A stretch of DNA of 64,000 bases from Candidatus Tenderia sp. (GCA_031416075.1 JANOSY010000088.1:9504-73503), one strand, 5' to 3'; positions 62,794-63,174 are shown, numbered from the stretch's first letter. Notes: a model not told the origin generated them from the letters alone. A program made the numbers and translations.

Positions 62794-62911
62794 CCGTTCA
62801 TAATCCACTCCAGGTTGATGACATAGTCAACTCTCCTTAGTGCGTACGGGGCCTGCCTTCCTCCCCCCCTCCCCCCCCAATAGGGCAGCCCACCCCGTAC
62901 GCGCCTTTTTT
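62794..62911 (+). ncRNA. Candidate sRNA 1 with C-rich terminator loop (5' end approximate)
   Basis: Possible promoter TTATAA-N17-TGATAC. A small hairpin GTTGA/TCAAC (62814-62831) is followed by a terminator: GCGTACGGGG (62842-62851) pairs with CCCCGTACGC (62893-62902), and an inner CTGCC/GGCAG pair closes a 26-nt loop UUCCUC7UC8AAUAG. Then GCC and TTTTTT. No ORF. Confidence 0.45.
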
Positions 62912-63008
62912 ATTCAATGATACCCGCTTTGAAATCAAAAACATAAAACAGTCAAGCACCCTGCTTCAGACTATCTGAAATAGTGCTCTGCCACGCACCT
63001 ATTGTCTT

Positions 63009-63024
63009 ATAGGTAAACATCTAT
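63009..63024. promoter_or_regulatory. Interrupted palindrome ATAG-N8-CTAT (box 2)
   Basis: The sequence is ataggtaaacatctat. It lies about 97 nt before the second C-loop hairpin, similar to the 103-nt spacing of box 1. Confidence 0.4.
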
Positions 63025-63063
63025 CATGTTAATAAGAAATCAGTGCTAGTCATTATAGTGACT

Positions 63064-63174
63064 ATAGGAGATACTGCTACAAAGTTGAGCTGATCACTCA
63101 ACTTTGTGTGTATGGGGACTTGCCTTTCCCCTCCCCTCCCCCTAAAAGGTGAAGGCTCCATACACACTGTTTTT
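63064..63174 (+). ncRNA. Candidate sRNA 2 with C-rich terminator loop (5' end approximate)
   Basis: Possible promoter TTAATA-N17-ATTATA. Hairpin AAAGTTGAG/CTCAACTTT (63081-63105) is followed by a terminator: GTGTGTATGG (63106-63115) pairs with CCATACACAC (63158-63167), with loop C4UC4UC5. Then TGTTTTT. No ORF. Confidence 0.45.

Follow-up and report, generated by a model that had tools for sequence, protein, structure and literature searches.

Two sibling candidate small RNAs with C-rich, anti-Shine-Dalgarno-like loops in a conserved module with a CbbR/RbcR-branch LysR-type regulator of Candidatus Tenderia and related Gammaproteobacteria

What occupies the 636 bp between the start of a gene for a LysR-type transcriptional regulator (LTTR; 61774-62718, - strand) and the stop of sspB (63355-63771, - strand; the ClpXP specificity-enhancing factor by NCBIfam) in a 64,000-nt stretch of a Candidatus Tenderia sp. 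genome (GCA_031416075.1 JANOSY010000088.1:9504-73503; hereafter the window)? An earlier interpretation made from the DNA alone (the sequence-only reading) had seen no credible open reading frame (ORF) in this gap, which it put at 640 bp, and had proposed two sibling small RNA (sRNA)-like units of an undescribed family with exposed anti-Shine-Dalgarno (anti-SD)-like loops. The ORF scan agreed, as all ORFs in the gap were at most 53 aa long and read straight through the hairpins. The proposal as a whole was likewise supported, by covariation, by promoters belonging to each unit, by terminators acting in one direction and by the lack of a consistent downstream gene. The feature is judged genuine, conserved and hitherto undescribed on comparative sequence evidence, on which the finding rests wholly; the family is new but its kind is known, and its twist is that the regulator comes from the RuBisCO-regulator branch. 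The strongest point, which the sequence-only reading had missed, is that comparison of loci reveals a conserved regulator-sRNA module.

Both units follow one plan, consisting of a conserved promoter, a small 5' hairpin (stem-loop 1, SL1), a long terminator hairpin with a C-rich loop of 17-22 nt, and a U-tail, all on the + strand. Unit 1 (about 101 nt from predicted start to U-tail; 62811-62911) comprises a 7-bp SL1 (GGTTGAT...GTCAACT; 62813-62832), a single-stranded linker CUCCUUA (62833-62839) and a terminator hairpin (62840-62904) made of a 12-bp outer stem (GUGCGUACGGGG/CCCCGUACGCGC; 62840-62851/62893-62904), a 7-bp inner stem (62853-62859/62882-62888) and a 22-nt loop (CCUCCCCCCCUCCCCCCCCAAU, that is CC-U-C7-U-C8-AAU; 62860-62881), followed by a U-tail encoded by T6 (62906-62911). 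Unit 2 (about 93 nt, delimited in the same way; 63082-63174) comprises SL1 (63079-63107), a terminator hairpin (63106-63167; outer stem 63106-63117/63156-63167) with a 17-nt loop (CCCCUCCCCUCCCCCUA, that is C4-U-C4-U-C5-UA; 63128-63144), and a U-tail encoded by T5 (63170-63174). The small hairpin, strong stem and T-run of both units were thus all found where they had been described, as were the two pyrimidine loops of the same kind (CCUC7UC8 and C4UC4UC5). The location of the units held, but their start at 62794 did not, as the conserved promoter and its upstream box begin further upstream, namely at 62738 (unit 1) and 63009 (unit 2). The C/U tracts of the two units are the most extreme pyrimidine tracts of the window, and such an arrangement occurs at these sites only.

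The + strand of unit 1 folded with a minimum free energy of -38.0 kcal/mol (z=-5.5) and that of unit 2 with -35.2 kcal/mol (z=-5.1), and in neither case was a fold as good obtained in 200 dinucleotide shuffles. Outer stems of 10-12 bp, followed by T6 and T5 respectively, give both hairpins the form of intrinsic terminators; they were absent from the output of a simple terminator scan because their loops of 17-22 nt exceed its loop limit of 8 nt. The two large stems had been said to differ completely in sequence, a statement that has to be withdrawn: the outer stems GUGCGUACGGGG (unit 1) and GUGUGUAUGGGG (unit 2) can be aligned and differ by transitions only, with compensating changes in the opposite arm, as expected for diverged paralogues.

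Selection on these structures was assessed in an alignment of 15 units from nine loci. In the 12-bp outer stem, 94.4% of cells were standard pairs and seven of the 12 pairs showed changes on both sides (21 cells), a covariation reached by none of 500 column shuffles, while sliding the partner by 1-3 columns lowered pairing to 13-67%. RNAalifold independently returned the same helix. Inner stems were kept with unrelated sequences (CUGCCUU/AGGGCAG, UGUCUUUU/AAAAGACA, GCUCUGG/CCAGGGC and CCUUGG/CCAAGG). As G-U cells (9-11) exceeded A-C cells (3) and a U-run followed the hairpin on the C-rich strand only, the C-rich strand is the RNA. A covariance model built on the family (R1) recovered unit 1 at 103.8 bits and unit 2 at 74.9 bits as its sole matches in the 64 kb, both on the + strand. 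With regard to known families, Rfam 15, in which alpha-r15/AbcR, sX13 and RsaE are included, returned only tRNAs in the window at gathering score; at E<=10 it returned nothing relevant between 62650 and 63450, where the best match (21 bits against a 45-bit cutoff) fell on the sspB terminator, and at E<=1 no relevant match in ten related loci, which bears out the view that the family is not a described one. That the units are independent RNA genes under selection is very probable.

The linkage between units and regulator was followed through homologues of the LTTR sampled along an identity gradient, the surroundings of each being retrieved (loci numbered with the prefix L). The LTTR protein was 100% identical in the Gammaproteobacteria metagenome-assembled genome (MAG) JAKFXL01 (L001) and 93-94% identical in a 'Candidatus Tenderia sp.' MAG and an 'uncultured Chromatiaceae' MAG (L002, L003). 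In the latter two, both units again lie between the LysR gene and sspB, with hairpins, loops and promoters kept and with double changes in the stems (e.g. GCGUACGGGG/CCCCGUACGC to GCGCAUGGGG/CCCCAUGCGC); the inter-unit spacer and the stretch toward sspB were not conserved. At 82, 79, 76, 72 and 68% identity (L007-L011), one or two units built on the same plan were found upstream of the LTTR gene, in divergent orientation, and two units beside the LTTR were also present in L002, L003, L007, L009, L010, L011, L040 and L047. At 64, 60, 58, 58 and 56% identity (L012, L013, L083, L085 and L086, respectively), the promoter was recognisable and the RNA was built differently, with one to three hairpins and a length of up to about 250 nt, always with C-rich loops (e.g. 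CCCCUCCCUUA, ACCUCCCCCCUU, UCUCCUCCCUUU) and with a C-rich-looped terminator at its end. Two or three such hairpins were present in L013, L083 and L086, the three of L013 having CCCCUCCCUUA loops. Of 16 distinct LTTR loci, 14 had RNAs with this promoter and with C-rich loops upstream of the LTTR orthologue and divergent from it, at identities down to 56%, the exceptions being L014 (58%, a RuBisCO-linked cbbR) and L084 (56%, facing a small protein gene).

Protein-gene neighbours differed in nearly every LTTR-sRNA locus, and the gene downstream of the units was convergent or different in every one. Since the flanking genes change while the LTTR and the RNA(s) stay together, regulator and RNA(s) form a module, and the differing neighbours in every more distant relative hint that this module relocates. 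Metagenome contigs were also scanned with the pattern GCGCATGGG...CCCCC...CCCATGCGC, which represents one stem variant and a C5 run. It gave 68 matches, 64 of them chance occurrences in G+C-rich DNA with neither promoter nor LTTR; L082 was doubtful, and the three genuine units (L040, L041, L047) each adjoined an LTTR orthologue (73-83% identity) and were each accompanied by a second unit. In some relatives (L009:2305-2417, L040:6532-6650, L047:1383-1500 (-)), SL1 is C-rich-looped as well (AUCCCCUCCCCCCUCAA), giving two anti-SD loops per RNA.

The promoter-like stretch pointed out earlier before each unit proved to be a conserved promoter of its own. On the + strand of unit 1, an upstream dyad (62738-62764) reads ATAG(62738-62741)-N8-CTAT(62750-62753)-N7-ATAA(62761-62764), and the promoter scan placed a core promoter at 62775-62804, with a -35-like TTATCA (62775-62780), an 18-nt spacer and the -10 element CATAAT (62799-62804). 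Relative to a predicted transcription start at about 62811, CTAT-N7-ATAA is centred at about -54 and the ATAG/CTAT dyad at about -65. The unit 2 promoter (63009-63075, + strand) has the same layout, ATAG(63009-63012)-N8-CTAT(63021-63024)-N7-ATAA(63032-63035), with the -10 element GATACT at 63070-63075, and the first base of the box (CTAT) precedes the -10 element by exactly 49 nt in both window units. Anchored on the -10 element, 15 promoters from nine loci aligned without a gap, with the consensus ATAG-N8-CTAT-N7-ATAA...TTT-TAtTATyATTTATA-N12-CATAnT, of which the block TAtTATyATTTATA-N12-CATAnT was kept in all relatives. A position weight matrix of these promoters scored unit 1 at 70.1 and unit 2 at 40.1, the sole two matches in the window; the deficit of unit 2 lay mainly in the part spanning the -35 element and activation binding site (ABS), which is more diverged than in unit 1.

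T-N11-A is the generic LysR box (PMC8844928), and CTAT-N7-ATAR is a motif of this type. By sequence, the units thus have what marks an LTTR-dependent promoter, namely a T-N11-A dyad at about -55 to -65, a weak -35 element and an orientation divergent from the LTTR gene; a poor -35 element is as expected for a promoter that would depend on an activator. In the lineage of L009, L040 and L047, both halves of the unit 1 dyad have changed symmetrically, to ATTG-N8-CAAT, which is the behaviour to be expected of a protein-bound palindrome.

The presumed activator of both sRNA promoters is the 314-aa LTTR itself, encoded divergently from unit 1. Its sequence makes it a member of the CbbR/RbcR/CmpR branch, not a demonstrated CbbR equivalog: its best NCBIfam match was CbbR (NF045990), at 235 bits and thus under the 450-bit equivalog cutoff, and its nearest solved structures were 5y2v ('Rubisco operon transcriptional regulator', cyanobacterial, E=9e-94) and CmpR. 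Neither in the window nor in any other sRNA-linked LTTR locus examined did a RuBisCO gene stand beside the LTTR. The regulator of L014, 58% identical to the LTTR, is a classical cbbR divergent from the genes for the large and small subunits of RuBisCO; because the sRNA-linked L085 adjoins it in a crude neighbour-joining tree, there is no clean split between the sRNA-linked regulators and genuine CbbR proteins. In L014, the intergenic region between cbbR and cbbL holds TCTAT-N7-ATAGA, the same box, and the single match of a weight matrix derived from sRNA promoters only fell, within the L014 locus, in this region (2410-2477, - strand), directed toward cbbL. The sRNA promoters and the cbb promoter seem to be built alike. 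Position, box type and co-inheritance, from which binding is deduced, make control of the units by the neighbouring LTTR probable. In L085 (2215-2385, - strand), the interval between the LTTR gene and the sRNA promoter contains another ATAG-N8-CTAT box and, after it, a perfect palindrome about 55 nt long; together they may represent a further small transcript of the same regulon.

As to what the RNAs might do, reading of the sequences found CCUCC in 13 of the 15 terminator loops. The unit 1 linker CUCCUUA, which has the same sequence as the very 3' terminus of 16S rRNA, is common to unit 1, L002, L003 and L008. In the mechanism proposed, the gap would encode two paralogous trans-acting sRNAs, of about 100 and 93 nt, each with its own activator-dependent sigma-70-type promoter (a good -10 element, a poor -35 element and an upstream T-N11-A LysR box) and its own intrinsic terminator. 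The divergent CbbR/RbcR-type regulator would bind the shared boxes and switch on both genes upon a metabolite signal, for which homology makes a link with carbon fixation or redox status probable, and would probably repress its own gene from the same boxes. The mature RNAs would then expose two pyrimidine elements resembling the 16S 3' end, the CUCCUUA linker in unit 1 and the CCUCC-containing C-rich loop, large and unstructured, that the terminator helix would hold open at its top. These elements would pair with Shine-Dalgarno (SD) sequences, other G-rich sequences or G-repeats in the leaders of target mRNAs, and this pairing would block ribosome binding, a change in mRNA stability being secondary. 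That the units are LTTR-activated, trans-acting anti-SD sRNAs, analogous and not homologous to AbcR1/2-VtlR and RepG, is the reading we favour, with some reserve; for its molecular part, action through pairing of the loop or the linker with SD or G-rich sites, the case suggested by these motifs is a little better than even.

Among known systems, AbcR1/AbcR2 with VtlR/LsrB (Rhizobiales, alpha-r15) come closest in architecture and logic. AbcR1/2 are tandem homologous sRNAs of about 115-120 nt that lie beside an LTTR gene and depend on LsrB/VtlR, the box for which, at about -61 to -49, precedes a sigma-70 promoter (PMC8844928, PMC7486931), with one anti-SD element (aSD1) in a hairpin loop and another (aSD2) in the single-stranded linker between SL1 and SL2 (PMC8844928). 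The window units resemble them in being tandem siblings that adjoin an LTTR gene and have partly different promoters. They differ, however, in having neither sequence nor structure homology to AbcR (with no Rfam match even at E<=10), in carrying the main C-rich element in the terminator loop instead of the 5' hairpin, in being divergent from the regulator gene instead of downstream of it, and in their hosts, which are Gammaproteobacteria instead of Alphaproteobacteria. Box and nearest matches also set the two systems apart, with ATAG-N8-CTAT-N7-ATAR and a CbbR/RbcR-type LTTR here and GCAT-N3-TG-N3-T for VtlR/LsrB.

In seed placement, the closest counterpart is RepG of Helicobacter pylori, in which the C/U-rich loop of a Rho-independent terminator pairs with a homopolymeric G-repeat in a 5' untranslated region (PMC8295292), but RepG is single-copy, has no LTTR linkage and is not homologous, and no leader G-repeat was present in this window. 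In evolutionary behaviour, it is Cuckoo, with stems that turn over while the loop motif is kept. The Cuckoo/CcsR (RSs0680) RNAs carry a CCUCCUCCC loop motif in each of 2-4 adjacent hairpins (PMC4615179), and C-rich loop motifs also occur in sX13 (PMC3771888), found in Xanthomonadaceae only. Fast-evolving stems, a conserved C-rich anti-SD-like loop, a modular number of hairpins and multiple copies are common to these RNAs and the present family (PMC4615179, PMC3771888). Unlike Cuckoo, the window units have one C-rich loop each and SL1 loops that are not C-rich, and the three CCCCUCCCUUA-looped hairpins of L013 are a resemblance only; Cuckoo moreover belongs to Alphaproteobacteria and has another conserved neighbour gene. 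NgncR_162/163 of Neisseria are sibling sRNAs that regulate metabolism (PMC9973317). They share the sibling arrangement, but their seeds are different and they are not homologous to the window units. In the enterobacterial pairs OxyR-OxyS and GcvA-GcvB, the sRNA gene is divergent from, and activated by, a LysR-type regulator; OxyS and GcvB differ from the units in their seeds (G/U-rich in GcvB), in being single-copy and in lacking homology. In the literature consulted, neither a CbbR-linked sRNA nor any sRNA of Tenderia was described, and one lead, BsrA/PA1112.1, proved to be unrelated.

Several observations weigh against an activated, trans-acting pair of anti-SD sRNAs. Scans of duplex energy, translation-initiation regions and G-runs identified no target within the window, where genes are too few and the energy scans are dominated by G+C-rich coding sequence: in this genome of 54% G+C, sliding duplex energies and translation-initiation scans mostly matched internal G-rich coding sequence. 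The best duplex sites (39301-39340 and 51366-51405) were rejected as targets, both lying inside ORFs and the first on the non-coding strand, and G-runs of at least 6 in the window were all in coding sequence or in the unannotated stretch at 47.9-48.2 kb, none at a recognisable leader. Feedback on the regulator was also considered, as CTCCCCCCCT at 62513-62522 equals part of the unit 1 loop, which makes the loop perfectly complementary over 10 nt to codons 66-69 of the LysR mRNA; this complementarity is lost in L002 and L003 and was taken as chance. The -35 element of the unit 1 promoter is weak, and unit 2 may be regulated differently from unit 1, as AbcR2 is. The terminator loops are unusually large, and the transcription start and 3' end of the units are themselves inferred from sequence features. 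The contig of L001 (JAKFXL010000048.1, 1-76) breaks off inside the C-run of unit 1, where it reads C5-T-C9 against C7-T-C8 in the window; between near-identical assemblies, this difference could be polymorphism or slippage, or a sequencing or assembly error, which makes the exact loop sequence uncertain. Finally, the sub-cutoff CbbR score weakens the assignment of a signal to the LTTR.

The alternative that survives best, although unlikely, is that the RNAs are sponges whose C-rich loops titrate an RNA-binding protein, such as one with a KH domain or another poly(C)-binding protein. It would account for loops that conserve their composition (C-rich with scattered U) and neither exact sequence nor length, as fits a degenerate protein site, for run lengths that vary even between near-identical strains, and for the lack of an mRNA target in the window scans. 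Exact 16S-like cores (CCUCC and CUCCUUA) nevertheless recur, and no C-binding global regulator of such a kind is known in Gammaproteobacteria. Moreover, the characterised sRNAs with such loops all base-pair, with ribosome-binding sites or G-rich leaders (PMC8844928, PMC3771888, PMC8295292, PMC4615179).

It is quite unlikely that the transcripts have no function of their own, being abortive products of the divergent LTTR promoter that end at insulating terminators, or that the locus acts at the DNA level, through a G-quadruplex or i-motif (G8AG7, - strand) with an effect on transcription nearby. The - strand of unit 1 (G8-A-G7-A-GG) could indeed form a quadruplex, and the antisense folds are stable too, but four G3 tracts are missing in unit 2 and in most relatives, and the G-U pairs and the U-tail fit the C-rich RNA strand only. 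Insulation, for its part, needs no second unit with its own promoter, and the retention of two or three C-rich-looped hairpins across deep divergence, despite replacement of the stems, argues for selection on the RNA.

A cis-acting leader, attenuator or riboswitch for a downstream gene is very improbable: the next downstream gene is co-directional in L008 and L011, but it is convergent in the window, L002, L003, L007, L009 and L010 and differs in identity everywhere, and each unit is closed by a strong U-tailed terminator with no alternative antiterminator fold evident. Hardly credible, lastly, is a mobile or dispersed repeat of the repetitive extragenic palindromic (REP) type, which the sequence-only reading had itself named as the finding that would overturn it, or a small-protein gene; the locus is hairpin-rich and twofold, lies beside a tRNA gene and is overlapped by ORFs of 40-53 aa, but the covariance model finds two copies in the 64 kb, both on the same strand, and every copy that it finds in 16 other loci adjoins an LTTR gene, a collection of 72,556 plasmids held no match to the units, and the ORFs read through the terminators and are shifted in frame by indels and C-run changes between close relatives.

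Around the module, a symmetric A5-stem-T5 hairpin (63323-63349, with no strand assigned) was detected by the terminator scan at the 3' end of sspB, outside the sRNA units, and is kept in L002 and L003. It has the look of a bidirectional terminator and gave weak chance matches to STnc40 and STnc420 in Rfam. As sspB has this terminator of its own, the unit hairpins terminate no coding gene. On the other side, a tRNA gene (61541-61614, - strand) is the immediate 3' neighbour of the LysR gene, which places the module between a tRNA gene and sspB. Elsewhere in the window, 47445-48801 is without an ORF of at least 120 aa and contains G-rich runs of (GGY)n type (48007-48102 and 48572-48586) and G6/G7 runs at 47929 and 48209. 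Two adjacent giant ORFs of 2098 and 1872 aa occupy 32777-44711 on the + strand, and the Rfam scan placed tRNA clusters on the - strand, with five genes at 15069-15730 and two at 8234-8400.

A wider interpretation can be offered tentatively, with the balance somewhat against it. In uncultured chemolithoautotrophic Gammaproteobacteria, Ca. Tenderia and its relatives, a branch of CbbR/RbcR regulators may have an sRNA in place of an enzyme operon as the divergent target dedicated to it; a carbon-fixation or redox signal would then be relayed post-transcriptionally, by RNAs that mimic the anti-SD sequence and globally tune translation initiation, in convergence with VtlR/LsrB-AbcR. If this reading of an sRNA as dedicated target were true, autotrophic carbon control would have a riboregulatory arm not known before. 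Provided that the RNAs are expressed, the module connects post-transcriptional control with a CbbR-type sensor of carbon or redox status, and the units would form a new and fairly widespread sRNA family (14 of 16 distinct LTTR loci, 56-100% regulator identity). Its hosts are bacteria known almost only from metagenomes, including the electroautotrophic Ca. Tenderia, in which riboregulators have not been described. The module offers an experimental handle, with one transcription factor, one box and two RNAs, and the family is a good test case for models of RNA families whose stems turn over and whose conservation is limited to the promoter and the composition of the loop. As candidate anti-SD sRNAs, the units would make the family a clean example of convergent evolution toward a LysR regulator with tandem anti-SD sRNAs.

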